From the IMG/VR virus record IMGVR_UViG_3300025151_000010, positions 1 through 34,233 of that record: a stretch of 34,233 bases of DNA; one strand, 5' to 3'. The translations under genes were made by a program, and so were the position numbers. The notes under the pieces are model-generated. The model saw nothing but the letters and a program-made list of their open reading frames with translations, had not been told where the DNA came from and did not search any database. Shown piece by piece: positions 1 to 34,233 of this stretch. The stretch comes from a virus. Position 1 is the stretch's first letter. Each line of letters opens with the position of its first letter.

Positions 1-99
1 CCTACAACATCAACATTGTAATAGTGTTTGAAAGCCTTATTATTTCGGGTTGATGCTGGTACCTTAAACGATTGGGAATAATCGCTGACAACCGATTTA
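1..99. repeat. 99-bp terminal direct repeat, copy 1 (identical to 34135..34233). It marks a circular or terminally redundant genome of 34,134 unique bp.
   Basis: Base-by-base reading shows 1..99 (cctacaacatcaacattgtaatagtg...ctgacaaccgattta) equals 34135..34233. A minus-strand reading frame continues in frame across the junction. Confidence 0.95.
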
Positions 100-194
100 A
101 GGTCGCGCAAATCCTTTACCCTCCTGGAGAGTACAACGCTTTCGTCCTGGAACATATCCAGGGCAGTACCGTCAAGATAGACTACGAATCTCAT
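1..194 (-). CDS. 5' part of a 745-aa tail-tip/baseplate-like structural protein gene that wraps the linearisation point and continues 34134->32091
   Basis: The ATG at 194..192 overlaps the TGA of the upstream gene (ATGA at 191..194). MRFVVYLDGTALDMFQDESVVLSRRVKDLRDLKSVVSDYSQSFKVPASTRNNKAFKHYYNVDVVG joins in frame to GYDAHNKTPAVIEIDG...FYGDNKKLSS at the other end. 194 + 2044 nt = 746 codons. Confidence 0.85.
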   Translation of the reverse strand, partial: MRFVVYLDGTALDMFQDESVVLSRRVKDLRDLKSVVSDYSQSFKVPASTRNNKAFKHYYNVDVV

Positions 195-1327
195 GCGTTC
201 GCCATATTTAAGTAATCAGCCGTTTCCTCGAATTGGAATGTGTATTGTACAATCCTATCGTTGAGGCTGGTTTTTAGTGTAATGTTTTTCTCCACGATAT
301 TGACTGAACGCCAAATTGAATCGTGGTAGATTTGGATTTTTGGGGAGGCTAAAAGTTGCTCAATACTGCTATTGATTTCCTCTCCTAAAATTTGGGTGTT
401 AAGTTGGTATACAACCTTTCCCTTGTGCCCGTATGAACTGCCGTTTGTTTTGCTTACATCGATATTGAATCCATCGTAAAACATTGGGCGTTTGAATGCC
501 TGGCTTTCTAACTGAATTGATTTTGTTGCTCGTCCCTGGAAGAATAGGTACTGAAGGCAACCGAATTTATTTACAAAGGCAACGGGGTATGCCTCGTATC
601 GATTGGCACAACCTCTTTTGAATTTGTATACCTTGTTGTTGCCCGAACCCCCCAGGGTAACTGTAATGTCATCGCCCGTAATTGATTCGTCATTCATAAT
701 GTCAATAATGTCAACGTGTACCAGGCGTTGTTCACTTTCCGAAACCACTTTACCCGAAATATCTTCGGTGTATGTAGTCGTGCCGTCCGTTACCCTTACC
801 GAAGTGTGATGAGGTCGGTAAACGGGAATGTACATTGACGAGCCAAAGAATTCCATGTTCTCGGGAGAATCAATTAAGCCCACCGTATCGGCGTGGTCGT
901 AGTTGTGGTTGATTTCCTGGTTGTATGAATACGAATATCCCTGGACTGCATAGAAGCCGTTTCCCGTTGTGGATTCACTTCCCCCGTCCCAAACACCTTT
1001 GCAAACAGTTTTAACCCATACGGCAGTTCCTACACTATTCTTTACCCTATTTGTCCAGTCGTTTAACTGGGGCAATTCGAATTCGTCGTTGATTAGTTTA
1101 CTTAGGTCAAATACCGCACGATTATTCATTGAGGAATTCGGCAACTTTCGAAGGGTATAATTTGCATCGCTCGGTTGTGCGCTGGAAGCCCCCGTCCAAA
1201 TGTAAACCTCAACCTCATAAGTGAAATCGGTTTGAGTGATATTGGTGCTACTTACTTGAATAAGTACTGGGCTATTCGCCAGGGTCAAGTCCCCCGCATC
1301 GGGTTGTTTGTTAATCGTTAAGGCCAT
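191..1327 (-). CDS. hypothetical tail-module structural protein (378 aa)
   Basis: Long ORF coupled by overlaps to both neighbours and located in the tail gene block. I can name no catalytic motif. Confidence 0.6.
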   Translation of the reverse strand: MALTINKQPDAGDLTLANSPVLIQVSSTNITQTDFTYEVEVYIWTGASSAQPSDANYTLRKLPNSSMNNRAVFDLSKLINDEFELPQLNDWTNRVKNSVGTAVWVKTVCKGVWDGGSESTTGNGFYAVQGYSYSYNQEINHNYDHADTVGLIDSPENMEFFGSSMYIPVYRPHHTSVRVTDGTTTYTEDISGKVVSESEQRLVHVDIIDIMNDESITGDDITVTLGGSGNNKVYKFKRGCANRYEAYPVAFVNKFGCLQYLFFQGRATKSIQLESQAFKRPMFYDGFNIDVSKTNGSSYGHKGKVVYQLNTQILGEEINSSIEQLLASPKIQIYHDSIWRSVNIVEKNITLKTSLNDRIVQYTFQFEETADYLNMANA

Positions 1328-3107: not shown

Positions 3108-3133
3108 AAAAAAACCCCAGGCGATGCCCAGGG
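3108..3133 (-). terminator. rho-independent terminator
   Basis: Minus strand reads CCCTGGGC-ATC-GCCTGGGG (two G-U pairs that form only in the minus-strand RNA) followed by T7. It lies just downstream of the stop at 3142. Confidence 0.7.
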
Positions 3134-7390: not shown

Positions 7391-7743
7391 TCATCTTTTC
7401 GCACTACCTCAACATTGACCTTCAATGGCATATTGTCTTGTCCCGTTATCTCCTGGCGTTCGACATACCCTCGGTGTTTGCCCTGGGTTTTAAGGGCGAA
7501 TATAATAGCCGTCATATTGCCCCCGTCAATACCTTGCATAAGTTTACCCTCAATGTAATCCAAGCGCATTTCTTTGATGTTGTCTACTTCCTTTGCAAAG
7601 TCGGGGTCATTACTTAACCAATCGTAATAAGTTGTCCTACCAATACCCACCTTTTTACACGAAGCCGTTACATTGCTTAAGGTCTTTTGGAGGGCATCAA
7701 GCATTGCTTTTTTATGGTGTTCGGTTTTGTTCGGTTTTGGCAT
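7387..7743 (-). CDS. terS: terminase small subunit (118 aa)
   Basis: N-terminal HTH (SCKKVGIGRTTYYDWLSNDPDFAKEV) is followed by a helical region (GNMTAIIFALKTQGKHRGY). It sits directly upstream of terL and is coupled to it. Confidence 0.75.
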   Translation of the reverse strand: MPKPNKTEHHKKAMLDALQKTLSNVTASCKKVGIGRTTYYDWLSNDPDFAKEVDNIKEMRLDYIEGKLMQGIDGGNMTAIIFALKTQGKHRGYVERQEITGQDNMPLKVNVEVVRKDE

Positions 7744-8567
7744 TACTTAATCAGTTGTAAAAATTCATTGCGAGCCTTCTCGTCTTCCTTAAAATATCCA
7801 ACCATCTTAGATGTGGTGGTGTAGGTGTCGTGCTTCTTTACCCCTCGCATACTCATACACATATGTTGTGCCTTTAATACAACGGCTACTCCCTTAGGCT
7901 GTAGTTCCTCCATCAATCGGTCTGCAATTTGCATTGTAATCCTTTCCTGGTTTTGTAGCCTACGAGAATAGGTTTCAAGGGTACGGGCTAACTTGCTCAA
8001 TCCAACGATTTTTCCATCGGGTATGTAGGCAATATGTCCCACCCCAAAGAAAGGGGCTATATGATGTTCGCAAAGGCTATGAAACGGAATGTTGGTTTGT
8101 ACTATCATCTCGTCCATTCCTTCCGAATCGAATACCGTGAAATTGAATTCGGGAGGCGATAAGAATTCACGCATAAATTTGAGGTAGCGTTTTGGTGTTT
8201 CCTTTAACCCTTCTCGTGTTGGGTCTTCGCCCAGGTATTGGAAGATTCGCACCATGTTATCTTCTACCTCCCCGTCTTCTTCTTTTTCCCAGGGGAATAC
8301 CAACCACTCGCCCTGGAGTTCCTTGCGTTTATCGAATAACGCTACGAATGGTTTTTCGGGAAATTCGGCTTTCCACTTAACTTCGGTTGCTCCCGAATCA
8401 ATTAGGTCGTCAATAATAACATCGGCAACGTGAGGATTCATAACGGCTTTTCCAGTTAGTGCGGCTGGGACGGCTCCTCCCCTGGGCACACCGTAGTATG
8501 TTACGTCCTTTGGCAAGGCATTAACTCTCTCGTAAACTTGTTCCCAGGTGATGTAGGTTTTTTTCAT
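7743..8567 (-). CDS. folE: fusion protein: N-terminal Gpt-like mini phosphoribosyltransferase domain + C-terminal GTP cyclohydrolase I (FolE), 274 aa
   Basis: The N-terminal part has YITWEQV, GVPRGGAVPAALTG, VIIDDLIDSGAT (PRPP loop) and EWLVFPWE, which match the blocks of xanthine-guanine PRTase. The C-terminal part has EGLKETPKRY, CEHHIAPFFGVGHIAYIP, GLSKLAR, QNQERIT and HMCMSMRGV, which are FolE signatures. Confidence 0.8.
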   Translation of the reverse strand: MKKTYITWEQVYERVNALPKDVTYYGVPRGGAVPAALTGKAVMNPHVADVIIDDLIDSGATEVKWKAEFPEKPFVALFDKRKELQGEWLVFPWEKEEDGEVEDNMVRIFQYLGEDPTREGLKETPKRYLKFMREFLSPPEFNFTVFDSEGMDEMIVQTNIPFHSLCEHHIAPFFGVGHIAYIPDGKIVGLSKLARTLETYSRRLQNQERITMQIADRLMEELQPKGVAVVLKAQHMCMSMRGVKKHDTYTTTSKMVGYFKEDEKARNEFLQLIK

Positions 8568-9296
8568 CTAAACTCCAGTTTTTTTATTCCAAATATCAAT
8601 GTGCAAACGGCTGGTGTATTTTAGTCGTTCACGTTTACAAATTTCTGCAACGGCTGGTGCGCTTTCCGATAGAAGATTCTTGTCCTCTCCACTCGGCATA
8701 AGCCATACTTGTTCCCTTTTAACGATAGGCAAGTAATCCACTCGTATTTCTTCCCATTCACTTTCAGTAGTTACAACGAATTTGAACATAGCATTCATTC
8801 GTGATACCGCTTTAATGACTTCGGGCTGGTAGGTTTGATTTCTTGTATTGCCCGAATTGGATAGTTTGGGACTAACATTCCATTGGTCGACTTCCCTAAA
8901 AAGGGCATCGCTTGGAAGTATCGTTCCGTTGGTTTCGATTTCAACGAATACCTCGGGGTTTATGAATTCACGAATGTATTGAATGAAATCTACCACCGCA
9001 TCTTGTTGCATTGTAGGTTCGCCCCCCGTAATAATTACATTCGCCCCGTCGTTGATTGCTTCCACGCATTCATCGTCAAGGATTTCTTCTACGGCTTTCG
9101 CCTGGGCATTCATCCATACTTCCAGGGTATCGCATCGGAAGGTTGCCCCGTTCATTAATTCCCCAGTAAACTGTGTACCCATACCTCCACACATAAGGTT
9201 ACAACCCCCCAGGCGCACAAATACGGCTGGAAATCCTGCGGTCTTACCCTCCCCTTGTATTGAGTAGAATACTTCGCTAATCGCTAACTTTCTCAT
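8568..9296 (-). CDS. queE: 7-carboxy-7-deazaguanine (CDG) synthase, radical-SAM QueE (242 aa)
   Basis: N-terminus EVFYSIQGEGKTAGFPAVFVRLGGCNLMC...FRCDT matches QueE, and IITGGEPT is also present. The Cys spacing reads CX3CX18C. Confidence 0.8.
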   Translation of the reverse strand: MRKLAISEVFYSIQGEGKTAGFPAVFVRLGGCNLMCGGMGTQFTGELMNGATFRCDTLEVWMNAQAKAVEEILDDECVEAINDGANVIITGGEPTMQQDAVVDFIQYIREFINPEVFVEIETNGTILPSDALFREVDQWNVSPKLSNSGNTRNQTYQPEVIKAVSRMNAMFKFVVTTESEWEEIRVDYLPIVKREQVWLMPSGEDKNLLSESAPAVAEICKRERLKYTSRLHIDIWNKKTGV

Positions 9297-9672
9297 AGGC
9301 TACTTTGCTGGATTTTGTTTCGGCCAGCGTTATCTTAGTTATGTTTATATGCTCACGAATGAGGTCGAATAGGTGCATAGCCATGTTCTCAGCACTCGTT
9401 TGAAATGGTAATGGAATGAACGGTTCATTGAGGTCGATAAGCGCTTGACACAACGGGTCTTCATCGTGTAGCAAAAAGTAGTGGTCAAACTGCTTAACAA
9501 TCGGTTCAACTATTTCATCGATGTCGCTAAACAAGACCGTCAAATCCCCGTCCATCTCCAAAGAAAATTCACACTCAACATCGTAAGTGTGCCCGTGTAT
9601 TCTACCGCACTTTACCCCCGCTTCTTTATTGCGGTGTGCGGCGTAAAAATGGTATACTTTAATTACTTTCAT
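9277..9672 (-). CDS. queD: 6-carboxy-5,6,7,8-tetrahydropterin synthase QueD (131 aa)
   Basis: Contains FYAAHR, CGRIHGHTYDVE, FDHYFLL, TSAENMA and LAETKSSKV, which are canonical QueD/PTPS T-fold blocks. Confidence 0.8.
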   Translation of the reverse strand: MKVIKVYHFYAAHRNKEAGVKCGRIHGHTYDVECEFSLEMDGDLTVLFSDIDEIVEPIVKQFDHYFLLHDEDPLCQALIDLNEPFIPLPFQTSAENMAMHLFDLIREHINITKITLAETKSSKVAYEKVSD

Positions 9673-10589: not shown

Positions 10590-10912
10590 CTTTCAACCCT
10601 TGCACCTCCCCTATTGTCTTCAAATACCTCAACCCAAACGGCATTAAATTCCTGGAGTAATTCCTTTGCAATCATTTCGCAAGACATACCCCAAAAGTGG
10701 CAAGGCGTTAAGTATTTTTTATGTAAATATCTTCGAATCTTGTCCTCCTGGATAAAGATTTCAATCTCTCGGTCATCGTGCCCCACTTCAAAGGCACAAC
10801 GAATACGAAATATGTGTCGGTGTTTGTACTTTAGAAATTCAACTTCGGGCAATGCCCCTTCCCATTGGTGGAAGCCGATAACATCTTGGTCGGTTATTAC
10901 GAGCGTCCTCAT
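10586..10912 (-). CDS. divergent QueD/PTPS-like T-fold paralogue (108 aa), function unknown
   Basis: It aligns by eye to the in-window QueD in three blocks: KHRHIFRIR vs HGHTYDVE, MSCEMIAKELL vs TSAENMAMHLF, and VFEDNRGGARV vs LAETKSSKVAY. It lacks the CxxxHGH Cys. It has ATGA overlaps with both neighbours. Confidence 0.5.
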   Translation of the reverse strand: MRTLVITDQDVIGFHQWEGALPEVEFLKYKHRHIFRIRCAFEVGHDDREIEIFIQEDKIRRYLHKKYLTPCHFWGMSCEMIAKELLQEFNAVWVEVFEDNRGGARVER

Positions 10913-11490
10913 TTTCCTAAGTAATCTTTAAGTAGTTTCCACACCGCCGCTTCATAGGATTCGGCTACGTGCAAAAGCCCTTCTTTTACCACTTCCAATT
11001 CTTCTTCCGTATAAGTGAGTACCAGGTTAGTCGCTGGTTCGATATCCTTAGCATCGTCCTCCTGGGGTTCATCAAAAAAGCCATCGAGGTCAACATCTTG
11101 CTCGGGCATCCATACATCTACCCCCATTTCTTTCAAAAAGCCAGGGTCGTATTCGTTAGCCAGGAGTTCCCAGTCGTATTCCCCCGAATGCACATTGTCC
11201 TTAATTACGAATCGGCGCATAGCCTTAGTATCTGCTACATTGCCAGGGACAATCATAACGGGTACCTCTTTCCACCCTAAATGTTGGTAGGCTCGGAAGC
11301 GTTGATTTCCCCCCTGGGCAACCATGTCCTCATCTACAATAATTGGACGGGCTTCACTCATCCATGAATCCTCCTCAATGCTTTTGACCAAGTTGGCGAA
11401 TTTCTCGTCCCGTATAACCCTGGGGTTGTTTGGGTTTGCTTTGACCTTTGAAATAGGTACGTATTCGACCTTAATTTTCGGCTTCTTCAT
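10909..11490 (-). CDS. ParB/Srx-like N-terminal domain protein (193 aa) with acidic C-terminal half
   Basis: VEYVPISKVKANPNNPRVIRD and GGNQRFRAY correspond to ParB box-type motifs (NPR, GxxRxxA). It is translationally coupled to the deazaguanine genes. Confidence 0.65.
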   Translation of the reverse strand: MKKPKIKVEYVPISKVKANPNNPRVIRDEKFANLVKSIEEDSWMSEARPIIVDEDMVAQGGNQRFRAYQHLGWKEVPVMIVPGNVADTKAMRRFVIKDNVHSGEYDWELLANEYDPGFLKEMGVDVWMPEQDVDLDGFFDEPQEDDAKDIEPATNLVLTYTEEELEVVKEGLLHVAESYEAAVWKLLKDYLGK

Positions 11491-12380: not shown

Positions 12381-12411
12381 CAAATATAAAACAAAATCCT
12401 AACTTGTCAAA
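12381..12411 (-). promoter_or_regulatory. canonical Bacteroidota-type promoter upstream of the sigma gene
   Basis: Minus strand reads TTTG-(19 nt)-TATATTTG, an exact match to -33 TTTG / -7 TAnnTTTG. It continues GAAAAGACAAATACTTTGA then ATG. Confidence 0.6.
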
Positions 12412-12749
12412 TACCACTGAATCTCCCTGGCGAATTCTAAGAAGCCACCGACCACCACATACCGATAGCCCTGGCTTTCAACCGCTTCCTCAAATGCCTT
12501 TTGATGTTTGGTCTGCCGTCCTTTGCCGTGTTTCATTTCAATACACAAGCCGTGGTACTCTCCCCTGGGAACAAGCAAAATCAAATCACTTACCCCAGGT
12601 AATAAGCCTTCACGCTTCATTCTAATGGCCGTTCCCCGATTTCTCATACCTCCATTCGGTACGCTAAAAAATACCCCAGCATAGCCAGGGTATTGAAGCC
12701 GAAACCACTTAACACATTCGGCTTGTAGGGCACTTTCAAGTTGCTTCAT
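12399..12749 (-). CDS. VRR-NUC domain nuclease (116 aa)
   Basis: PD-(D/E)xK core: PGVSDLILLV ... LCIEMKHGKGRQT. Size and layout are typical of VRR-NUC. Confidence 0.8.
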   Translation of the reverse strand: MKQLESALQAECVKWFRLQYPGYAGVFFSVPNGGMRNRGTAIRMKREGLLPGVSDLILLVPRGEYHGLCIEMKHGKGRQTKHQKAFEEAVESQGYRYVVVGGFLEFAREIQWYLTS

Positions 12750-12835
12750 TTTGCCTTGTTTTTACCCGTCCAATAAATCATTAACATACTAACGGTAATC
12801 GTCAGTATTACCACCATCCATTTGAATTCAATCAT
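12746..12835 (-). CDS. 29-aa single-pass membrane peptide, missing from the ORF track
   Basis: Read by hand: MIEFKWMVVILTITVSMLMIYWTGKNKAK. It exactly fills the gap between two genes, with a TAATG overlap upstream and an ATGA overlap downstream. Confidence 0.45.
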   Translation of the reverse strand: MIEFKWMVVILTITVSMLMIYWTGKNKAK

Positions 12836-13122
12836 TAGTACCCTAATTTCTTTTTCACTATACTTTGTTTAGCCTGGCGTTCCTGGTATTTCTCGCCCCT
12901 TAGTTCCTGGAATTCTTCCTGGAGTTTACGGCGTTGTCTTGTAATGGTATCCGCTGAGGTAAGTTTCCCCTGGGCATATTCTTGCAACAAGGTAAAGCCA
13001 GTCATTCGTGCTGGATTCTGTCCATCGCTGGAAAGTTCCCAAAACCAAACATTCGCCACTAACTTAAAATCGTCGTCCCGTAAGCCAGCGTTCTCTCTCA
13101 ATAGTTTTTCTACGTATTTCAT
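12835..13122 (-). CDS. hypothetical protein (95 aa)
   Basis: ORF in the early/replication block. Confidence 0.6.
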   Translation of the reverse strand: MKYVEKLLRENAGLRDDDFKLVANVWFWELSSDGQNPARMTGFTLLQEYAQGKLTSADTITRQRRKLQEEFQELRGEKYQERQAKQSIVKKKLGY

Positions 13123-13264
13123 CGTCCCTTCTTTTGATTAGTAATTTCGTTCTATCCGCCCAGTATTCGGCATCTTCTATGGTTTTACATTCGCCACAGT
13201 TTTGTGCTTCGAATGTGCCCACGGTCAAGGCATTACCGCATTCGCAAAAATCAAATCTTTCCAT
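13064..13264 (-). CDS. small zinc-ribbon-like protein (66 aa)
   Basis: MERFDFCECGN...NCGECKT has CxC...CxxC. Start chosen at 13264. The 3' end overlaps the next gene by 59 nt. Confidence 0.4.
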   Translation of the reverse strand: MERFDFCECGNALTVGTFEAQNCGECKTIEDAEYWADRTKLLIKRRDDEIRRKTIERERWLTGRRF

Positions 13265-13940
13265 CTTCAATCGCCTTTTCAATAATTGAAGCCACCTTTA
13301 TAGCATTTTGTAAATCCTCGTTACTTGGCTCGGTGTAAGAATACCCCAGGGCTTTAAGTGGGTCGTTGGATTTTTTATTGCTTAAATGGTGCTTGTATTG
13401 GCGTTCGCAATACTGGGAAAGTTTCCATTCCAGTTCAGCGTATTTATCGTCAAGGTATTCCTTGTCAATCCACCCCTTCTTCTCCACCCACGAAGCCAGG
13501 GAAGAAAGGCTTTTGATATTGAATTTGAATAGCCACTTGGTATCCTCAAATGATTTTTTATAATCATCAGCAACGGCGTGCAAGGCTTTACGGCTTACCT
13601 TTTCCTCGTCTCTTTCGGGCATTTGGTAGGCTTGTTTTTGCTTTTGGAAATACCTTGATTTGTTTGGTGTTGACTTTAGGAATTCACGTATGAGTTTTAT
13701 AATAAGCACGGCCGTAAGTTGGCGTGTTTTGGGGTCGTAGTTTCCCTGGAGAAACCATTCGACCGAATCCTCCAGGAGTTGTACTTCATAATTCTTCCAG
13801 GTATGGCGTACATATTCAATTGTCGACTTCGGGTCGCCAGGCGGATTCATACCGCCCAGGTCAATGAGCCTTTTAACAATAGCCCCCAGTTCTTCGTTGC
13901 TTTGTTGTCCTATTTTCATTTTGGTTATCGTTAACTCCAT
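13251..13940 (-). CDS. hypothetical protein (229 aa), replication module
   Basis: Long ORF coupled to the replication-initiator-like gene. No motif recognised. Confidence 0.6.
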   Translation of the reverse strand: MELTITKMKIGQQSNEELGAIVKRLIDLGGMNPPGDPKSTIEYVRHTWKNYEVQLLEDSVEWFLQGNYDPKTRQLTAVLIIKLIREFLKSTPNKSRYFQKQKQAYQMPERDEEKVSRKALHAVADDYKKSFEDTKWLFKFNIKSLSSLASWVEKKGWIDKEYLDDKYAELEWKLSQYCERQYKHHLSNKKSNDPLKALGYSYTEPSNEDLQNAIKVASIIEKAIEDGKI

Positions 13941-14596
13941 TGAAGGTCGGTATTATTTGCGTTGTCTTGATACGGCAAATCATTTTCCCACCGTTGCTGA
14001 TTTAAGTAAGTAGCCAAGTGAGGTAGGTAAGCCATCTTGTTGTGGCTTTGATGATGCGCAATAAACAACGGTATATGAGCCAGGGCTTCCCGTTGTTGAT
14101 TCGAAGTAAGTCTTGTCCATGCTTTGTAAGAGGTTTTTTTCACGCCCTTCTTCAAATACAAATTCCAAATCTTTTCAAATTCAACCGAATAAGTATCCTT
14201 TTTATTTTTATCTAAAGAGTTATCCGTATTACTTACCCCATTTTGGACGGGAGGGGTATCCGCCAAACTGGAGGGGAGGTTGCCCCCAAATTGGGGAGGG
14301 GTATTTAAGGGCGTTATTCTTCGTTCTAAGACCGTCAAATTAGAATCCCGTAGTAGTTCTCGGAAAATCAATTTACGGCTTTCTAACACCTTCAAATCAC
14401 GTTCTAATGATTTAGCCGAGGTGTTTACGATTTCAATCAAAGCCTTATTTGAGGCGTAACAATATCCTTTTTTATTAGCCAGGGAATTTATAACCCCCAG
14501 GAGAACGCACTGGCGATGATTAAGAATCTCCAGTAGGTAAGAAGGAAAAACCACGAAATAATTCAAGCGTTCCAAATTTTGTGTTACATTTGACAT
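13931..14596 (-). CDS. putative replication initiation protein with N-terminal winged-HTH (221 aa)
   Basis: The N-terminus (VVFPSYLLEILNHRQCVLLGVINSLANKKGYCYASNKALIEIVNTSAKSLERDLKVLESRKLI) looks like a wHTH. The C-terminal block FEKIWNLYLKKGVKK...YLNQQRWEND is common in phage replication or DnaD-like proteins. Confidence 0.45.
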   Translation of the reverse strand: MSNVTQNLERLNYFVVFPSYLLEILNHRQCVLLGVINSLANKKGYCYASNKALIEIVNTSAKSLERDLKVLESRKLIFRELLRDSNLTVLERRITPLNTPPQFGGNLPSSLADTPPVQNGVSNTDNSLDKNKKDTYSVEFEKIWNLYLKKGVKKTSYKAWTRLTSNQQREALAHIPLFIAHHQSHNKMAYLPHLATYLNQQRWENDLPYQDNANNTDLQWS

Positions 14597-14633: not shown

Positions 14634-14658
14634 AAGCCCAGGTTTTGTGCCTGGGCTT
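14634..14658 (-). terminator. hairpin, weak terminator/attenuator after the SSB-like gene
   Basis: Minus strand reads AAGCCCAGG-CACAAAA-CCTGGGCTT followed by CTTTCT, a short U-tract. Confidence 0.45.
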
Positions 14659-25619: not shown

Positions 25620-25622
25620 CTC

Positions 25623-25760
25623 TTAATTTCCTGGCCAGTACATTATCCTGGCATCTTCGCTATAACCGTATTTTAATGCGATTTGAACGGCTTTCTCCTC
25701 GTCGGGGCATAGAATGTACATCTTGCCTACATTTGGGTGCATTAGAACGAAGATTTTCAT
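25623..25760 (-). CDS. hypothetical peptide (45 aa)
   Basis: Start MKIFVLMHPN at 25760 forms an ATGA overlap with the upstream stop. Confidence 0.45.
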   Translation of the reverse strand: MKIFVLMHPNVGKMYILCPDEEKAVQIALKYGYSEDARIMYWPGN

Positions 25761-26494: not shown

Positions 26495-26525
26495 TTCCTT
26501 TATATTTTGGTTTCTACTGACAAAA

Positions 26526-26549
26526 CCTGGCATTTGTTTCAGTGCCAGG
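26526..26549 (-). promoter_or_regulatory. conserved-loop hairpin H2 (partner of 4133..4156)
   Basis: Plus strand reads cctggca-tttgtttcag-tgccagg. Confidence 0.55.
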
Positions 26550-26570
26550 CGTTGTCGATGTTGGTTGTGA

Positions 26571-26834: not shown

Positions 26835-26863
26835 TTTTTCTCTTTTTTTGGTTGTTTGATAGT

Positions 26864-26898
26864 CCAAACTACGGAACTATATTTTAGTTCTACAACAC
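26864..26898 (-). promoter_or_regulatory. conserved early promoter element P5
   Basis: Minus strand reads GTGTTGTAGAACTAAAATATAGTTCCGTAGTTTGG. Confidence 0.55.
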
Positions 26899-26915
26899 TA
26901 AACTGAAAAAAAAAC

Positions 26916-26946
26916 AAAAAAAAAGGGGCTGACCGAAGCCAACCCC
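26916..26946 (-). terminator. rho-independent terminator after the tail-tube-like gene
   Basis: Minus strand reads GGGGTTGGC-TTCG-GTCAGCCCC (UUCG tetraloop; two G-U pairs valid only in minus-strand RNA) followed by T9 G T9. Confidence 0.8.
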
Positions 26947-26971
26947 AGGGGATACTTACTAAAACCACTAC

Positions 26972-27508
26972 TTAACTCCCCGCTACAATCGTAATGTGGT
27001 CATCAATATCATTCGTTACTGAAATGAAATTTGCTGGTTCCTTCTCCTGGGCAGTAAGGGTAATTGTGTACCCGTACAAATCGCCCATCGCCGCACCAGT
27101 AGCCACAGTACCACCAGTAACTTCACAACCGTGCTCAAGACCCATCATCCAGTAAGCGCCGTTGTTATCTTCAACGATTACGTGTGGACGGCCGTAAGCC
27201 ATTAGTTTAAGTTGCTTGTGCATTTCTTTAGTTAAGCCTTTCAATTGAAGTGAAAGTACTTGCTCAAAGAATACCGTGCCGTTTTCGCGTGATGCGTTAA
27301 TTGTTTCTTCGAAGGAATTAGTTCCTCGTAGGTCGTATTTGTAACCAGTAGGTTCAGTCGTACCATCAGCCTCCGTGATGTCGGTGATTTCGCCGTCCGA
27401 ACCATTTGTTACTTCCAAAGGCTGGTAGTTGATGAAATAAACCGCTTTCAGACCCCCTACTTTGTCCTTACAAGGTTCTAAACGTCCAAGTGTTAAATTA
27501 CAAGACAT
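26972..27508 (-). CDS. putative major tail (tube) protein (178 aa)
   Basis: The pattern CNLTLGRLEPCKDKVGGLKAVYFINY...GRPHVIVEDNNGAYWMMGLEHGCEV...YGYTITLTAQE is one I recognise from siphovirus tail-tube proteins of Bacteroidota phages. It lies downstream of the capsid gene. Confidence 0.55.
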   Translation of the reverse strand: MSCNLTLGRLEPCKDKVGGLKAVYFINYQPLEVTNGSDGEITDITEADGTTEPTGYKYDLRGTNSFEETINASRENGTVFFEQVLSLQLKGLTKEMHKQLKLMAYGRPHVIVEDNNGAYWMMGLEHGCEVTGGTVATGAAMGDLYGYTITLTAQEKEPANFISVTNDIDDHITIVAGS

Positions 27509-27524
27509 AAAATTTAATTTTTAG

Positions 27525-27554
27525 GAGGAAAAGAAGCCAGGTTTTACCCTGGCT
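27525..27554 (-). terminator. hairpin/attenuator after the major capsid gene
   Basis: Minus strand reads AGCCAGG-GTAAAA-CCTGGCT followed by TCTTTTCC. Confidence 0.5.
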
Positions 27555-27567
27555 CCGTCCCAGTTTA

Positions 27568-28437
27568 TTATCGATTCAATACCACTTCGCTACCGATACC
27601 GAAGTCTACGGCACGAGTGAAGCGCATTACAAAGCGTACGTTTTGCGAGCCATCGATGTCCGCCATGTCAATGACACGTACTTCGTTGTGGTCGTTCAAT
27701 AGACCAGTCGCAAAATATAGGTTTGACTTACGCGCCGCTACGATTTGGTCTGCACCCAATCCAGGAGCAACGAACATATCTTTACCTTCGAAGTTCAAAG
27801 GCTTCGCACCTACTGAGTACATATCGTTATAACCAGCCGTACCGAGGTAACGCATATATAGTTTCGCAATCTTAGGAGAAACGTACAACGTCAAATCTTC
27901 TTCGTCGTAGATTTCAGTTGGGATAGCATCGATTACGTCAGCCAATTCGTCGTCAACATTTGTTGCATCCAATGTACGAGTTGAAGCGTTGTTTACTACG
28001 CTCGAACCCGATGCGTTGAATTTAGTGTCCAATGAAGACCAAATAAACTGCTCGTTGTTCTTAGCCACGTGCGCCGCCATTTGACCAATCAAGTAGTCGC
28101 TGAAAGATGGAGGAAGGCTATCGTGTGCTGAGTAACCCATTGAAATCGCTTCCCAGTCGCTGTGAAAGTCTGACTTACACAAAGATAGGTTGACTTGCTT
28201 TTCTTCGGGAGTAATTACTCTTTCGCCCAAAGTAACTGCACCAGCATCGCTGAAATCACAAGATGCGTCGGCTACAAGACCCGAGGCGGTAAATGTTTTA
28301 AGTACTTGCTTGTACTTTACGTTTGGCATGATAGTGATTGCACTTTCATCCAATGTTTTAGCCGATAGGAGTGCTGCTGAAATATATCCTGCAGCCTTCT
28401 CACCAGCGTAAGTTGTAGTAATTGTTGGTGTTGCCAT
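27568..28437 (-). CDS. major capsid protein, HK97-fold type (289 aa)
   Basis: It follows the protease and scaffold genes. The N-terminus is MATPTITTTYAGEKAAGYISAALLSAKTLDESAITIMPNVKYKQVL, and the overall composition is typical of MCPs. Confidence 0.8.
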   Translation of the reverse strand: MATPTITTTYAGEKAAGYISAALLSAKTLDESAITIMPNVKYKQVLKTFTASGLVADASCDFSDAGAVTLGERVITPEEKQVNLSLCKSDFHSDWEAISMGYSAHDSLPPSFSDYLIGQMAAHVAKNNEQFIWSSLDTKFNASGSSVVNNASTRTLDATNVDDELADVIDAIPTEIYDEEDLTLYVSPKIAKLYMRYLGTAGYNDMYSVGAKPLNFEGKDMFVAPGLGADQIVAARKSNLYFATGLLNDHNEVRVIDMADIDGSQNVRFVMRFTRAVDFGIGSEVVLNR

Positions 28438-28443
28438 GATTTA

Positions 28444-29154: not shown

Positions 29155-29186
29155 AGTATTATAACGCTTATAAATTATTGTGTTCC
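29152..29186 (-). promoter_or_regulatory. late-type motif copy L3: GGAAC-N15-CGTTATAATACT-ATG
   Basis: Minus strand reads GGAACACAATAATTTATAAGCGTTATAATACTATG. Confidence 0.5.
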
Positions 29187-29190
29187 GTTT

Positions 29191-30117
29191 TTATTCGAGT
29201 TCCCCTAATTCGCGGAGTTTATTTCTTGACCAGCCCAGCGCCGACTTGCCACCCCACAACAAAAACGAAATAGTACCGCACGCGCTGGTGTCGTTCGGGT
29301 CATAGTATTCCTCGGCTCGGCTGAGGTACGAATACATTCGTTTAATTGTTTGAAGGCTTAATGGTTTACCCTGGGCAATTTGTTGCGCCCTAACCTTACC
29401 AGTTTGTGTCGCACATTTATTACCATTCTTTTCGTTTAGTTCGATACCTCGCTTGGCGTTATTACGAATTCCCTGGCCGTAATCGGAATACGATTCCATC
29501 TCCATTCGTTTGCCTTTTTTATAACGAGCATCGGGGCGTATAATGGCGCGAATCTCACTAAGGATTAGTTCGGCTTCTTCTTCATCGATAGAAGCCCTTA
29601 GTTTCATTTTATCGGCGAAATAACCTTCAATACTAAAGCCCTGGACTTTGCCCGTTTTAACGTAATTCTCCCACACGTCATTGTTTTCGACTTTCATCGA
29701 AATCATCCACGTGCCTACGGGAAGGCTCATATTGTATAGCGCACTCTTGTCTTTTTCCACGTCCTCAATAATCCAGGATTCAACCACGGACAAACCATTG
29801 ATTGAAACCTCGTGTTCGAGAGTGGCTTTGTTTTGGTGGCCACGCTGGAAGAATAATTCGTTAGCGCGTCGAATGGTTTCTTTGCTGAAATACACATAGA
29901 ATTCTTCGGTGCCGTTTCTTCGGTAGATTGGCTTATTAGGAATAAGTGCCGCACCCATTAGAATTCGTTTCTCTTTATCGTGAACGGCAAATTCTTGTCG
30001 TCCCTCGTCCTTCAATGCGATGAAGTTTTCTTCTATTGCTGGTTCGGAAACAATGCTAATCGCATCAATGCCATTCGCAAGGCTTTCCTCGTCCAAAATA
30101 AGTTCGATGATTCTCAT
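29191..30117 (-). CDS. XkdF-like prohead serine protease domain protein with C-terminal extra domain (308 aa)
   Basis: GIDAISIVSEPAIEENFIALK...ILMGAALIPNKPIYR...ATLEHEVSINGLSVVESWIIED resembles the XkdF/S78-like family. It lies upstream of the scaffold and MCP genes. Confidence 0.65.
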   Translation of the reverse strand: MRIIELILDEESLANGIDAISIVSEPAIEENFIALKDEGRQEFAVHDKEKRILMGAALIPNKPIYRRNGTEEFYVYFSKETIRRANELFFQRGHQNKATLEHEVSINGLSVVESWIIEDVEKDKSALYNMSLPVGTWMISMKVENNDVWENYVKTGKVQGFSIEGYFADKMKLRASIDEEEAELILSEIRAIIRPDARYKKGKRMEMESYSDYGQGIRNNAKRGIELNEKNGNKCATQTGKVRAQQIAQGKPLSLQTIKRMYSYLSRAEEYYDPNDTSACGTISFLLWGGKSALGWSRNKLRELGELE

Positions 30118-30149
30118 AGTACTATAACGATTGATTAACCAAATGTTGC
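30115..30149 (-). promoter_or_regulatory. late-type motif copy L4: GCAAC-N15-CGTTATAGTACT-ATG
   Basis: Minus strand reads GCAACATTTGGTTAATCAATCGTTATAGTACTATG. It overlaps the 3' end of the upstream gene. Confidence 0.5.
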
Positions 30150-31961
30150 GTTTTCAACGATGCGACGGTCAAGAGATTGCTGGGTAGTTACATCTTGTCC
30201 CACTACATAAGCCCTTTGTGGTCGTTCGGTATTTTGACTAATTGCCCCCAGGAGTTGTGTATTAGGATTCGCACTTGCCCCCACAATTCCAACACTCGGT
30301 GCCAGGCTTTGACCAAATGCACCACCACCGCTTTGTGGTCGTGCCCCACTTGAAGCACCTCCGCCCGACTTATCGCCAAACTTGGTATTCTTAATTGCTA
30401 ACACCTGGGCTAAACCCGAGATACCAGCGATACCAGCCTCAATGAATCTACCTCCTGGAATTGGGTTAACGGTGGCTAATGCACCCGAAATAGCATTTGC
30501 CGTGTTCATTATTGCCGTACCTATATTCAGCGCCTTGTTTACTTTGAAGGCTTTTCTCTGCGCCTTTTCGTTATCCCCAGCCAATGCCGTAGCAAGTTGT
30601 CCAACGGCTTGAGCCCCCTTCTCAGCAAGTGCTAATTTTGAATCCTGGAGGGCACGTTCGTCATCGATTTCTTTTTGCTTTAATTCGGCTAAAGCCTCTT
30701 GACGTTTTTGTTCTAACACCGTGGTGTCCTGGCCATACTTTTCAGCCAGGGCTACAAGTTTGTCGTACTTGTCATTGATTTCGAATATCTCGTTTTCCTT
30801 GTCGGTGGCATTGGCTTCACGAAGGGCTTCCAGGGCTTCAAGACGAGCCTTTTCTTCCTCGGCTATTCTTTTGGCTTTTTCGTCAGCACGTTTCTTTTCT
30901 TCCGCCGCCAATTCACGCTCAAGTGCTTCCGTTTCGGTAGCCAATCTTTTTTGTCTTTGAATAGTGGCTTGTTCGAGTTGTAATACCCTGGCTCGTGCTT
31001 GTGCAATTTCATCAAGGGTTTCCTCATTTGAATCGGCGAGCGCCGCCTGGCCTTCAAGGATTGCAAGTTTTTCTTTTTGAGCGTTTAATTCTTTTTGCGC
31101 TACTTCTTCTTCCAGTTCCCCAGCCTTTCGAATCGCCGCTAATCTTTCTTCCTGGGATTTTGTTTCGTCCATTGCAATCAAACGAGCCTTTGCAATTTCT
31201 TTGTTAGCCCTGGCACGGTCAACAATCAATTCACGTTCGATTTGTTTTACACGGTTCATTTGGGCTTCTAATTCCGCCGCCGCTTTAACATCTTCCCGTA
31301 CCTCTTTTGCTATCTTCTTGCCCGTTTCAACCATCGCTTCCATTATCATAGCCGACGGGTTTATCCCACGGTTGAGGTCAACGAAACTTTGACCAGCATC
31401 TTTAAGTGCGCCTTTGAAATCCCCCTTGAATAATTTTACCATAGCGCTCCCCAAAAGTTTTACGCTATTCAATACCAATTCAAATCGTCCAATAACGAAG
31501 TCTTTGATTGACTTTCCGAAATCCATGAGGGCTTGTTTCGGGTTTGTAAATAGGAAAACCAGTTTTTCTCCTACCTTGCTTACCAAGTCTAAAAACACAT
31601 CAAACCCAGCCTTAAGACCAGCCGTTGCAACACGAAGGGTTTGTGCCCCTTTTTCGGTACGAGAGAAGTACGCCGCCAAAGAGGCAAACACAACCACTAA
31701 AGCACCAACACCCGTTGATATGATTGCGCCTTTCAAGGTTCTAAATCCATTGGCTACACCACGCACCGCAGCGAGTCCACTTTTACCCATCATTACAAGA
31801 CCACCAGTTGCCGAGTTCGCCGCCGCCGTTACACCGCCGATTTCAGCACTCGTTTTCTTGGAAGCCTTTCCCGTGTCCTTGATGCCTTTACCCATCTTGG
31901 AAATATCCTTCTCCGCTCGTTGGGTTTTGGCTTCAAATACTACCGTTACTTTTTCAGACAT
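30135..31961 (-). CDS. tape-measure-like coiled-coil/transmembrane virion protein (608 aa)
   Basis: Hydrophobic segments (AIISTGVGALVVVFASLAAYF), a long central Ala/Glu/Lys coiled coil and a Gly-rich C-terminus with IGTAIMNTANAISGAL. Its position in the gene order is atypical for a TMP. Confidence 0.5.
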   Translation of the reverse strand: MSEKVTVVFEAKTQRAEKDISKMGKGIKDTGKASKKTSAEIGGVTAAANSATGGLVMMGKSGLAAVRGVANGFRTLKGAIISTGVGALVVVFASLAAYFSRTEKGAQTLRVATAGLKAGFDVFLDLVSKVGEKLVFLFTNPKQALMDFGKSIKDFVIGRFELVLNSVKLLGSAMVKLFKGDFKGALKDAGQSFVDLNRGINPSAMIMEAMVETGKKIAKEVREDVKAAAELEAQMNRVKQIERELIVDRARANKEIAKARLIAMDETKSQEERLAAIRKAGELEEEVAQKELNAQKEKLAILEGQAALADSNEETLDEIAQARARVLQLEQATIQRQKRLATETEALERELAAEEKKRADEKAKRIAEEEKARLEALEALREANATDKENEIFEINDKYDKLVALAEKYGQDTTVLEQKRQEALAELKQKEIDDERALQDSKLALAEKGAQAVGQLATALAGDNEKAQRKAFKVNKALNIGTAIMNTANAISGALATVNPIPGGRFIEAGIAGISGLAQVLAIKNTKFGDKSGGGASSGARPQSGGGAFGQSLAPSVGIVGASANPNTQLLGAISQNTERPQRAYVVGQDVTTQQSLDRRIVENATFG

Positions 31962-32089
31962 CTTCTCATTTGTTTTATCCCCTGGGTTACAGAGGTAATT
32001 CGTTCATATTTTCCTTTGGCACGTTCGGTTAATTCACCAGCACCATAGTGTTCATCTACCCACAAAATTTCTAATACCTTGCTAATCAT
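31946..32089 (-). CDS. 47-aa ORF filling the gap between two structural genes, missing from the ORF track
   Basis: Read by hand: MISKVLEILWVDEHYGAGELTERAKGKYERITSVTQGIKQMRRCLKK. It starts 2 nt after the upstream stop and overlaps the next start by 16 nt. Confidence 0.4.
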   Translation of the reverse strand: MISKVLEILWVDEHYGAGELTERAKGKYERITSVTQGIKQMRRCLKK

Positions 32090-32090
32090 A

Positions 32091-34233
32091 TTACGGTTCT
32101 TCAGTTCCGCCACCGCCCGTGTCTACCTCGGATTCGTATGCGCTTGCTATAATGTTAGAAACCACCACAAAAGGTACTGACGGGGCATTAGGTTGTTGAG
32201 TGGTTCTCGTTCCGTTTACTGTATTGATGTTCCCCAGGGAAGTACCTTGCGACCCCGTACCCACAAATGTTATTCCGTTGTTATTGGCTGACGGCGTACC
32301 CACATTCCAGTTGTTGCCCGTGCTTGATGCCGAGTAAATGTTTATGTCGGGGTATGTCATTAAAGTAACCTTCGCTTCTTCCTTCAACATATCGTATTGA
32401 ATACCGTCGATTTTATAGTAGTAACCCGATATGTTTATTGTTTCGCTTAAGTCCAGGTCAAGCCACTGCCCTACTGGAAGCCGTAGGGTAAGTTCTACGA
32501 GCCTGGATTGTGAAGAATAGATGCGAGATATATAACCGAGCCAAAACTCGCTTAGAATCGTTTTTTCAGGGGCATCGCCACTAAGGGTAGATTCAAGACT
32601 AAACGCCAGGCTTCGAGAAGTCGACGCAGTTGGATAGGCATTGTACGGGCTTATGATTGGGAAGGAGGTTTTTAATGAGCCACCGAAATACCAATCGTCC
32701 GAAGATTTCAGCCCGTTGTAATAGAATAAAAGGAAGTTAATTTGAATCGGATTTAAGCCGTTATCCAATGCCTGGAATAATTGAATATCTGTGGTCGATG
32801 CAACACTCCCGTACTGGTTTATGTCCCGAATCAAAGTAGGTGGGAATACTTGGAAAGGGGATTGCACCTTCAAATCCTTGCTACCAAAATCTACCGAGGT
32901 GCTACTCTCCGATGACCCAAATTCACGAACGGCGTTTTGGGTAAATGCTTGGTTTTGGAAATCCGTTGATTTTTTATGCTTGAACGAAAGCCTTTTGGCT
33001 ACGTCAACCTTCTTGTGTACCACGGAGGAAATATCGGCGTACTTGCTCCAGTCTTTTGTTGCCCCGTTATCGTACCAATCCTTAAGCGGTTCTACATCGA
33101 TTCGCGAATCACTAATCGGAAGTAAAATACAGTTGAATGTTTGTAATACCCCGTTCAAGAATTCAGCCACTTTCACTTTAGGCATTAACTCGCCAAAATT
33201 GATATTCGTATTGCTACTTGTATTCGGTCCCGATGTACATTCGAATGTTATATTGCTAATCTGCGCTCCCGATTGCGTAGAAGAATAACGCATTGTAATC
33301 AAATCCCCAGCGGCGAGAGTAACCGCAAAAGAATCCGTCTTATTTCCCGTAGTGGTATGCGTATTTCCATTGGCTACGCTTGAACCATTCTTGTATAGTT
33401 TTGAGGCGATTGTTCCACTTTGGGTAGTGGCTACATAGTACGAGTTTGTGAATGAATATAACCCAGCCGTAGGCGCAGTAAAAGTACCCGAGGTATAGTT
33501 CATTGCATTGACCGTATCTAAGGCCTCAGCCGTGTAGGTCATTGTAACATAAAAGTTACTCATACCAAAGTTGTAGGTCGTCGCCCTGGACACTTCAAAT
33601 TTAGGTACGACGGTGGCTACATTTAATGTACCAGCGTAAGCCGAGGGGCACACATAAAGGTCATCAAGGTGGGAATTCGTATAGAAACTTCCCTGGCTAT
33701 CATATCCGTAATGTGTGAAAATCGCCTTTACCATTTCGGTCAATAAAAGGGCTGGTTTCAAATCGGAAATGGTAACGCCCCCCGTACTTGTCGCTATGTT
33801 TTTTGAGATAGAAGTACCAGCCGATGAATAGTTAAAGGCTTCGCCCCAGGCAATCACGGGGTACATAACCTTACCACTAAGCAAGTTTCCGTTCCAGGAA
33901 TTCGTTATGTTTTGGGAAGTACGGGCATGAGTATAGTCGTCCCATTGAATCGCCTGGAGAGTATCTTCTCCCATAGACGAGGACAGTTTTTTGTTGTCCC
34001 CGTAAAACACGATTGAATAGTCCTGGGGTTGCCCGTCCTTGAATGTTACGCTATTTAATTCTACTACGCCGTTGAATACTTCGATGCCGTCTATTTCGAT
34101 AACCGCTGGGGTCTTGTTGTGGGCATCGTATCCACCTACAACATCAACATTGTAATAGTGTTTGAAAGCCTTATTATTTCGGGTTGATGCTGGTACCTTA
34201 AACGATTGGGAATAATCGCTGACAACCGATTTA
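32091..34233 (-). CDS. 3' part (plus junction overlap) of the 745-aa tail-tip/baseplate-like structural protein gene; the true start is at 194 across the circular junction
   Basis: The frame stays open upstream of the track start (GTG at 34010) to the window edge and joins in frame to 194..1. The protein is Ser/Thr/Asn-rich and typical of tail tip or fibre proteins. Confidence 0.8.
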   Translation of the reverse strand, partial: KSVVSDYSQSFKVPASTRNNKAFKHYYNVDVVGGYDAHNKTPAVIEIDGIEVFNGVVELNSVTFKDGQPQDYSIVFYGDNKKLSSSMGEDTLQAIQWDDYTHARTSQNITNSWNGNLLSGKVMYPVIAWGEAFNYSSAGTSISKNIATSTGGVTISDLKPALLLTEMVKAIFTHYGYDSQGSFYTNSHLDDLYVCPSAYAGTLNVATVVPKFEVSRATTYNFGMSNFYVTMTYTAEALDTVNAMNYTSGTFTAPTAGLYSFTNSYYVATTQSGTIASKLYKNGSSVANGNTHTTTGNKTDSFAVTLAAGDLITMRYSSTQSGAQISNITFECTSGPNTSSNTNINFGELMPKVKVAEFLNGVLQTFNCILLPISDSRIDVEPLKDWYDNGATKDWSKYADISSVVHKKVDVAKRLSFKHKKSTDFQNQAFTQNAVREFGSSESSTSVDFGSKDLKVQSPFQVFPPTLIRDINQYGSVASTTDIQLFQALDNGLNPIQINFLLFYYNGLKSSDDWYFGGSLKTSFPIISPYNAYPTASTSRSLAFSLESTLSGDAPEKTILSEFWLGYISRIYSSQSRLVELTLRLPVGQWLDLDLSETINISGYYYKIDGIQYDMLKEEAKVTLMTYPDINIYSASSTGNNWNVGTPSANNNGITFVGTGSQGTSLGNINTVNGTRTTQQPNAPSVPFVVVSNIIASAYESEVDTGGGGTEEP
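34135..34233. repeat. 99-bp terminal direct repeat, copy 2
   Basis: Identical to 1..99. Confidence 0.95.

Follow-up and report, generated by a model that had tools for sequence, protein, structure and literature searches.

Strong enrichment of the pentamer CCWGG in an uncultured phage genome: a possible signature of the host

The pentamer CCWGG (W = A or T) is about five-fold more frequent than base composition predicts in the virus record IMGVR_UViG_3300025151_000010 of IMG/VR, which was analysed over its entire length of 34,233 nt (positions 1 to 34,233; the window in the following). The excess acts at the DNA level, and it is found in a genome from which the near-cognates of CCWGG and many short palindromes have been purged. 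These bans account for one part of the excess, and a positive push on CCWGG adds to them. Tentatively, we attribute the whole to the host: restriction avoidance would be combined with a T:G-to-C:G repair drive resembling very short patch (VSP) repair, in a host that leaves CCWGG unrestricted.

CCWGG is in excess over all null models

The window holds 207 CCWGG sites (6.0 per kb), which read 101 times as CCAGG and 106 times as CCTGG on the plus strand. At a GC content of 43.6%, 43.3 sites are expected from mononucleotide frequencies. The initial annotation, which was made by eye, had estimated about 206 sites, about 43% GC and roughly 40 expected sites. Exact counting bears out these figures, and the listed site positions and per-gene counts are correct within 1 nt or one site, including the 22 sites in the first 2.4 kb (22 lie at or before 2388). 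Two outcomes had been named that would remove the signal, an exact count near 40 and a shuffle expectation of about 200. The count is 207, and codon shuffles give 66.5-75.2.

Markov models of the first (dinucleotide) and second order predict 44.3 +/- 6.7 and 48.0 +/- 6.7 sites, respectively. The third-order model predicts 134.5 +/- 11.1, from which the observed number still deviates with z = 6.5. When synonymous codons are shuffled such that every protein and the codon usage are preserved, 66.5 +/- 5.1 sites are obtained if the codon pools are genome-wide and 75.2 +/- 5.0 if each gene has its own pool. The highest value over 300 shuffles is 91, and z for 207 against the shuffles is about 27. 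No null model comes near 207, so that composition, Markov structure or codon usage were rejected as the sole cause. CCWGG ranks first among pentamers by over-representation and is an outlier among the GC-rich ones (3.07x; runner-up 2.0x). Of all guanines in the window, 5.5% lie inside a CCWGG site.

A longer motif or a dispersed repeat element was also considered and rejected. The flanking positions carry at most 0.14 bit each, and the spacing of the sites is Poisson-like (coefficient of variation 1.0). The unit is the pentamer itself. As the initial annotation remarked, such an enrichment is the reverse of what phages usually show for sites of this kind.

The excess acts at the DNA level

Of the 207 sites, 180 are coding and 27 touch non-coding DNA, which comprises 3.6 kb in total. 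Among the coding sites, 121 have the phase xxC CWG Gxx, 40 the phase xCC WGG and 19 the phase CCW GGx. The window offers 479 amino-acid contexts that could hold CCWGG synonymously, 38% of which are used genome-wide. Compared to codon usage, the first phase is enriched 6-8x and the second 3-6x. By context, the enrichment amounts to 7.7x for x-Leu-G, 6.1x for x-Gln-G, 6.0x for [SPTA]-Arg and 2.9x for [SPTA]-Trp. All 19 Pro-Gly pairs form CCWGG; they are forced to CCW-GG because CCGG is banned (see below). As had been noticed earlier, the excess is not tied to one codon phase: all three are enriched.

The bias is clearest for Gln. Before a codon starting with G, CAG is found 70 times and CAA 11 times if a C precedes, and 0 and 42 times, respectively, if any other base (D) precedes. 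In ban-free contexts, the CAG:CAA ratio is 38:69, which differs strongly from the C-preceded ratio of 70:11 (odds ratio (OR) 11.6, p 8e-13). For Leu, the bias of CTG towards CCWGG has an OR of 5.9, and NCC-TGG junctions amount to 24/37. The CCWGG excess acts at the DNA level.

Outside genes, CCWGG sites build the stems of intergenic hairpins, as the initial annotation had described. Its statement that site density is uneven holds as well: terL contains 8 sites, and the extremes are given in Table 1.

Near-cognates of CCWGG and short palindromes are purged

The window is poor in a large number of other short words. Measured against the synonymous shuffle, four palindromic tetramers are absent (found/expected: GATC 0/84, AGCT 0/98, CTAG 0/56, CCGG 0/61), as are the hexamers TTTAAA (0/17), AATATT (0/14) and AACGTT (0/14). 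GCWGC is found 3 times (27 expected), and GGTGA, GTCAC, GACTC, CCGCG, GGCCC, words containing GGATG and many others are strongly depleted.

The purge includes the closest neighbours of CCWGG. Variants in its outer position, DCAGG/CCTGH, occur 6 times instead of 115 (ACAGG 0/41, GCAGG 3/32, TCAGG 3/41). CCAGA/TCTGG (0/44), CCSGG (0/23.5) and CTAGG (0/21) are missing. The tetramer CAGG/CCTG itself is near expectation with 213 occurrences, nearly all of which are confined to CCWGG because the neighbouring words are banned. This purge of near-cognates and palindromes, which had escaped the initial annotation, accounts for part of the CCWGG excess.

Some longer palindromes show the opposite tendency. 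GAATTC, the EcoRI site, is found 42 times in the window (9.8 expected from base composition, 25 from the codon shuffle), and TTCGAA, TTGCAA, ATCGAT and CTTAAG are also about 2x enriched. In the closest relative, L204 (see below), GAATTC occurs once (4 expected).

How much the bans contribute was estimated by constrained resampling, in which synonymous codons were redrawn and banned words were forbidden to increase. Codon usage was kept fixed in all runs, a setting that favours the null. If bans are limited to words without relation to the CAG/CTG core, about 80 CCWGG sites are obtained, and 91-116 if the bans on DCAGG, CCAGA and GCWGC are added. Automatically derived bans yield about 112 sites when words at or below 0.15 of expectation are protected, about 143 at 0.35 and about 157 at 0.5. 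The looser lists are partly circular, since the concentration of CAG/CTG in CCWGG itself depletes other contexts. Of the sites in excess of the codon shuffle, the bans explain roughly one to two thirds, but never all. In addition, bans on neighbours do not lift the equilibrium of an allowed word as long as sites are independent, and a positive term is therefore needed. There is a positive push on CCWGG beyond codon usage and bans.

Relatives either purge or enrich CCWGG

For the family survey, 72 de-duplicated loci of at least 10 kb were used. A level below 0.1x is reached by palindromic tetramers in 19% of the cases and by non-palindromes in 0.7%. CCWGG is below 0.33x in 49% of the loci and above 2x in 7%; its enrichment is found in the subclade of the window and in another two or three lineages. 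The purged set differs from lineage to lineage, and usually one word per lineage (ACAGG, CCAGA, CTACC, GATC, CCGG or GGCC) is 3-4x enriched in a strand-symmetric way, often among banned neighbours.

Several of these words are palindromes that are enriched instead of purged: GATC (3.1x in L201) and GGCC (about 4x in L190 and L196). In L148, CCGG is about 2x and CCGGA and ACCGG are 4x enriched. The transition donors of these words are undepleted. In a large clade of relatives (L027, L037, L042, L043, L045 and about 20 further loci), the non-palindromic CTACC/GGTAG is enriched about 3-4x in a strand-symmetric manner, together with ACTAC and AGGTA.

The closest relative, L204 (a Logan contig from SRR14828376), has a portal protein 89% identical to that of the window at about 72% (72-78%) nucleotide identity and contains 47 CCWGG sites (12 expected). 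A second member, L203, which encodes a DpdA-like protein (see below) 87% identical to that of the window, has 8 (3 expected). The next clades out have purged the word (L205 1/26, L208 3/24 found/expected). In L205, L206 and L208 (the same contig as L004), CCAG/CTGG is essentially absent and DCAGG words reach 2-3x, a mirror image of the window. ACAGG, AGCT, TTTAAA, AATATT and CGCG are purged or depleted in the window only and not in L204; the difference between the two ban sets means that bans turn over faster than synonymous sites saturate.

Positions of CCWGG are shared between the window and L204: 25 are occupied in both, 13 in the window only, 5 in L204 only and 60 in neither (OR 23, p 6e-10). 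The retention of 69%, compared to about 30% for control pentamers, fits a constraint on the sites. It is, however, also expected because most synonymous exits lead to banned words. For the distant enriched loci L040, L112 and L046, the numbers are too small to assess position sharing.

Synonymous states one transition away from CCWGG are drained

Products and donors of transitions were compared as found versus synonymous-shuffle expectation. CCAGG reaches 3.07x and its donor CCAAG 0.63x (CCAAG/CTTGG 51 found, 81 expected in codon-aware terms). The product CCAGC is at 1.87x and the donor CCAAC at 0.72x; CCAG is at 1.73x (389 found, 225 expected) and CTAG at zero, where the absence of CTAG and CTAGG in the window is confounded by the general CTAG ban. 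The initial annotation had counted about 48 CTTGG and CCAAG words, considered this near expectation and used it as an argument against a VSP-repair drive. The number was right (51), but with 81 words expected this dismissal was premature: the donor is drained (CAA 11 vs CAG 70), and the drain is specific for transitions.

The latter was seen for codons before G in the five strongly enriched genomes, for which the share with a preceding C was determined. CAA, TTG and TTA, which are one transition away from the site or exchange with such a state, follow a C in 52 of 296 cases (18%; 26% expected, p 7e-4). For CTT and CTC, which are one transversion away, the share is 36/103 (35%). The two groups differ significantly (Fisher p 5e-4), and so they do in the window only (28/130 vs 27/64, p 0.004). 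Selection at equilibrium predicts a neutral preceding-C share in all non-site states and, hence, no such group difference. A TTG-specific depletion among Leu codons is uninformative in this respect, because equilibrium keeps non-favoured codons at neutral proportions. If NCC precedes, Arg-AGG and Lys-AAG are found in a ratio of 16:10; with NCD, it is 7:29 (p 0.001). The preference for Arg-AGG after NCC is an A-to-G bias at position 4 of the site that extends even to non-synonymous changes.

A host-imposed signature as the favoured explanation

Together, the purge, the push and the drain can be accommodated in a host-imposed signature, the reading that we favour with reservation. The phage would replicate with host enzymes under exceptionally broad restriction pressure. 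Purging of short palindromes and of words with a CAG/CTG core would funnel part of the codon and hairpin usage into CCWGG. CCWGG itself is spared in this lineage; in the simplest case, the host would possess a Dcm-type cytosine methylase without an effective partner nuclease. On top of this funnel, CCAAG/CTTGG would be directionally converted to CCAGG/CCTGG, as in the Vsr-type repair that accompanies such methylases. This conversion would drain the one-transition states and lead to an accumulation of CCWGG and of words containing CCAG. Lineages with hosts that restrict CCWGG would purge it, which would result in the purge-or-enrich split across the family.

Several points weigh against this explanation. 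The host methylase, the Vsr-type enzyme and the missing cognate nuclease are steps that we infer, and methylation cannot be read from a sequence. Selection that has not reached equilibrium would drain transition-connected states first and could mimic the observed drain. A depletion of Lys NCC-AAG was not seen. CTAGG is undepleted in the enriched genomes L040 (20 found, 15 expected) and L112 (9 found, 9 expected), and so is CCAAG in the moderately enriched L046 group (41 found, 26 expected). There is no consistent depletion of transition donors for the other enriched words of the relatives (GATC, CCGG, GGCC, CTACC, CCAGA, ACAGG). The funnel component is derived mainly from resampling at fixed codon usage and not on a mechanistic model, and over all pentamers the banned-neighbour fraction correlates only weakly with enrichment (rho 0.065). 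Finally, coliphages of Dcm+/Vsr+ E. coli are not known to be rich in CCWGG; a drive in the present case would therefore need far greater strength.

Possible selection for CCWGG and the 7-deazaguanine gene cluster

Alternatively, CCWGG could be positively selected, either as a modification target (of phage enzymes such as DpdA/DpdL or of a host methylase) or as a binding site of a dimeric protein. As a modification target, each additional site would add to the protection, and near-cognates would be purged because they stay vulnerable without the modification. We consider this rather unlikely, although a number of observations would agree with it: the strong synonymous bias in all three phases, independent of frame and symmetric between strands, the conserved positions in L204, and the fraction of guanines located in CCWGG. 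One candidate for such an enzyme is encoded by the phage itself.

Immediately upstream of the terminase genes, the window contains a modification cluster in the order FolE, QueE, QueD, a 305-aa protein, a 108-aa protein and a ParB-domain protein (Table 1). This gene set matches that proposed for DNA containing 2'-deoxy-7-deazaguanine (dDG; PMC10516641). The 305-aa protein is a candidate DNA guanine transglycosylase. Its AlphaFold model (predicted local distance difference test (pLDDT) 93.9) has tRNA-guanine transglycosylases (TGTs) as top Foldseek matches (E ~1e-6, TM score 0.5-0.6). Sequence matches in Pfam, NCBIfam or PDB were not obtained, and there is no detectable similarity to phiST DpdA3 (E 0.36). 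Among the 1547 homologues of this family, none carries a Pfam domain, and Faecalibacterium phage Roos is the only cultured phage with a homologue. The 108-aa protein is 32% identical to gp040 of Cellulophaga phage phiST (E 2e-21). DpdL proteins are defined by the signature LxxxHRHxF, which replaces the CxxxHGH motif of QueD (PMC10516641). The ParB-domain protein may be a DpdB-like partner, a role suggested by its position. QueC was not found among the scanned phage proteins, which included only part of the small open reading frames (ORFs). The N-terminal extension of FolE weakly resembles xanthine phosphoribosyltransferase (NF006613, E 8e-6, residues 50-82) and may represent a fusion that links base salvage to the deazaguanine pathway.

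The three strongest CCWGG enrichments (the clade of the window, L040 and L112) are all DpdA-positive. Likewise, a top enriched pentamer with a CWGG/CCWG core is found in 10 of 18 DpdA-positive and 11 of 71 DpdA-negative loci (p 0.001, uncorrected for phylogeny). Known phage DpdA enzymes are motif-specific (GA, or GA and GGC), and the bacterial DpdA has its target in a CAGCTG context. Out of 80 viral contigs matched by their terminase, L040 alone carries the cluster, and it is rich in CCWGG (39 found, 7-13 expected). However, most carriers of the gene behave differently. A direct search for homologues of the transglycosylase yielded 35 further contigs, mostly with almost no CCWGG (found/expected: L081 1/14, L082 0/14, L111 0/14); L112 (38 found, 8 expected) is the single enriched one among these. 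In Roos, which possesses DpdL in addition to DpdA, 6 CCWGG sites are found where 119 are expected. DpdA proteins 64-65% identical to that of the window occur in enriched and purged genomes alike. The 7-deazaguanine cluster does not predict CCWGG enrichment, and DpdA, to the initial annotation an obvious candidate, is not supported as its cause. The trait seems to follow lineage and host rather than the modification genes of the phage.

There is only a small chance that CCWGG is the recognition motif of DpdA/DpdL insertion in this clade, enriched for the sake of modification density, with near-cognates purged as they could not be modified. The motifs of the relatives would then be lineage-specific words with a CAG/CTG core (ACAGG, CCAGA, CCTGC). 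The same pattern of one enriched word among banned neighbours is, however, present in loci free of the cluster (ACAGG in L004; CCAGA in L022 and L023). Three further points argue against selection in general: the retention in L204 is also expected from banned synonymous exits, a transition-specific drain is not predicted at equilibrium, and the heavy purging of G-containing restriction sites implies that a modification protects to a limited extent at most.

Enzymes of the methylase/repair type were looked for in the phage, too. A C5-methyltransferase motif was found neither in the window nor in the enriched relatives, and a Dcm-like methylase encoded by the phage was rejected on these grounds. 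About 28 phage proteins scanned against family libraries gave no match to Vsr.

By-product, mimicry and other explanations

It is unlikely, in our estimate, that CCWGG is a pure by-product of restriction avoidance, i.e. that, with so many GC-rich words and words with a CAG/CTG core forbidden, codons, Pro-Gly and X-Trp junctions and hairpin stems end up in one word that is still allowed, and repeated episodes of banning ratchet its number upwards. The fraction of banned single-substitution neighbours is highest for CCWGG among all allowed pentamers (0.46), and CCAGC, which ranks second (0.40), is also enriched. The 19 of 19 Pro-Gly pairs are forced by the CCGG ban, resampling goes from 67 to 110-157 sites when protection is extended to further depleted words, the enriched words of relatives are also ringed by banned neighbours, and ban sets turn over fast. 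However, even the most generous, partly circular resampling at fixed codon usage remains at about 157 instead of 207, and neighbour bans do not push an allowed word above its equilibrium when sites evolve independently. The 70 CAG versus 11 CAA codons are left unexplained, since CCAAG is allowed. In L040, CCWGG is enriched though DCAGG and CCAGA are unbanned there, and the correlation over all pentamers is weak.

A general mimicry of the host, in which the phage mirrors host oligonucleotide usage through shared replication and repair biases, is very improbable. The trait tracks lineage, and no DNA polymerase or repair genes were found among the annotated phage proteins. However, the only bacterial flank fetched, that of Hymenobacter pini, is near expectation (94 CCWGG found, 74 expected), and mimicry is unspecific and overlaps with the VSP reading.

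Next to no chance is left for a Chi-like or otherwise single-strand-read signal (recombination hotspot, uptake sequence) or a sequencing or assembly artefact: such functions can enrich short host-specific words and modified DNA can cause systematic miscalls, but Chi-like signals are contradicted by strand symmetry (101 CCAGG vs 106 CCTGG; no extended motif), and an artefact by intact ORFs, conserved proteins, the same pattern in contigs of other projects and an independent, near-identical assembly (L121, Logan SRR5251700; 10 kb from another run, 99.99% identical to 20176-30269).

Comparison with known systems

VSP repair is known to preserve Dcm sites, and Vsr can promote the mutation of CTAGG to CCAGG (PMC2715241). 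The Dcm/Vsr signature of E. coli K-12 resembles that of the window in that CCWGG and CCAG/CTGG are elevated and the drain is limited to one-transition states; a reduction of CTAG and CTWGG/CCWAG may be shared as well. It differs in strength and in genome type: the window shows 3-5x in a genome of the lytic phage type, whereas the VSP effect on CCWGG in the E. coli chromosome is roughly 1.3x. Moreover, the complete purge of DCAGG and CCAGA is unexplained by VSP repair.

With respect to the avoidance of restriction sites by phages, the rest of the window is an extreme textbook case, with four 4-bp palindromes and many 5- and 6-mers at zero, and relatives purge CCWGG as well. In the window, CCWGG is opposite in sign and 3x enriched. 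In a survey of restriction avoidance in phages, only about 7% of Type II sites were eliminated, and an enrichment comparable to that of CCWGG was not reported (PMC6286503). In agreement with the initial annotation, our literature search yielded no phage system that explains the excess, and an enrichment of CCWGG of such strength was not found described for any phage.

Among the 7-deazaguanine DNA modification systems of phages are those of CAjan and iggy, whose DpdA is motif-specific, and that of phiST with its dDG pathway (PMC7544227, PMC10484667, PMC10516641). The window shares with them FolE, QueD, QueE, DpdL and a transglycosylase with TGT fold. In contrast to phiST, which replaces all G, the phage of the window still avoids G-containing restriction sites. 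In addition, nothing ties its transglycosylase to CCWGG, and phages with homologues mostly purge this word. Chi sites, DNA uptake sequences and GATC in Dam-dependent repair are likewise short words far above expectation throughout a genome. Chi and uptake sequences are, however, read on one strand, Chi with an orientation bias, whereas CCWGG in the window is strand-symmetric and Poisson-spaced and lacks a known reader protein.

Phage genomes are usually read as a record of the restriction sites that were attacked. The window also records a site that is actively favoured. If the repair drive is real, the mismatch-repair specificity of a host leaves a strong and readable mark in phage DNA, VSP repair can shape genomes far more than it does in E. 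coli, and hosts with particular methylase/Vsr pairs could be found for uncultured phages by means of this mark. If CCWGG were a modification target instead, it would be the first sequence motif for a dDG system, and the genome would be an example of tuning to a modifying enzyme that it encodes itself. In both cases, the family, with hundreds of aquatic contigs of 30-35 kb that differ in their purged sets and have one or two enriched words each, represents a natural experiment on the speed at which restriction rewrites genomes.

The phage and its features

Positions 1-99 (plus strand) of the window are identical to 34135-34233 and contain no CCWGG. This 99-nt repeat is a circular assembly overlap, and the unique genome length is thus 34134 bp. 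In greedy ORF calls, the minus strand holds essentially all genes. Besides the modification cluster, a terminase (6218-7390), an ECF (extracytoplasmic function) sigma factor of the Bacteroidetes type, a VRR-NUC nuclease, a replication initiator and an amidase were identified. There is no polymerase among the annotated phage proteins, and no tRNA was found in the window. By its affinities, the phage is classified, like its relatives, as a marine siphophage of the Flavobacteriaceae type, with a genome of 34 kb.

The only cultured relatives by portal protein are the Nonlabens (Persicivirga) phages P12024S/L (36% identity), and the terminase is 37% identical to terminases of Bacteroides and Phocaeicola phages. 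A nucleotide search of the window against cultured phages gave zero matches. The close uncultured relatives originate from Tara Oceans and other aquatic metagenomes; in the metagenome scan, terminase identity of relatives never exceeded 61%. A scan of genome collections for a host returned only mis-binned or distant matches (a Saprospiraceae metagenome-assembled genome (MAG), a Hymenobacter prophage with 44% and a contig of a 'Ruminiclostridium' MAG). One contig, L117 (CAYVNT010000014.1; 30.6 kb), from an 'uncultured Ruminiclostridium' MAG bin, encodes a terminase 66% identical to that of the window and has zero CCWGG, CCGG and GATC each. Probably, this contig belongs to a phage and was placed in the bacterial MAG by mis-binning.

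Table 1. Features of the window discussed in the text. Possible sites are positions that could hold CCWGG synonymously; the names tail tube and major capsid are the labels of the initial annotation for the respective ORFs.
Feature	Position	Strand	Remarks
FolE (GTP cyclohydrolase I)	7743..8567	-	N-terminal extension of ~100 aa resembling phosphoribosyltransferase
QueE-like radical-SAM 7-carboxy-7-deazaguanine synthase	8568..9296	-	
QueD (6-carboxytetrahydropterin synthase, PTPS family)	9277..9672	-	
DpdA-like DNA guanine transglycosylase candidate, 305 aa	9672..10589	-	phrog_887 match, E 9e-21
DpdL (proposed 7-carboxy-7-deazaguanine decarboxylase), 108 aa	10586..10912	-	LKYKHRHIF corresponds to the signature LxxxHRHxF
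ParB N-terminal-domain protein	10909..11490	-	adjoins transglycosylase gene
Stretch densest in CCWGG	12399..14596	-	20 sites in 2.2 kb; VRR-NUC nuclease, small ORFs, 229-aa protein, replication initiator
Fibre gene	20325-22163		4/23 possible sites used
Genes sparsest in CCWGG	26972..28437	-	tail tube 1/6, major capsid 1/11 possible sites used
Terminator-like hairpin	3115..3133	-	stem with two CCWGG (3117, 3128), then T-run on coding strand
Terminator-like hairpin TTCCCAGGG...CCCTGGGAA	4537..4563	-	CCWGG at 4540 and 4556, then T-run
Hairpin AAGCCCAGG...CCTGGGCTT	14634..14658	-	CCWGG at 14638 and 14650
Hairpin with CCTGG/CCAGG arm pair	26526..26549	-	sites at 26526 and 26545
Hairpin GAGCCAGG...CCTGGCTTC	27535..27554	-	downstream of capsid gene; CCWGG at 27537 and 27548

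In the fibre, tube and capsid genes, CCWGG occupies only 9-17% of the positions open to it, compared to 38% genome-wide. This low use could be due to codon constraints connected with high expression or to recent acquisition of these genes from a lineage that purges CCWGG.

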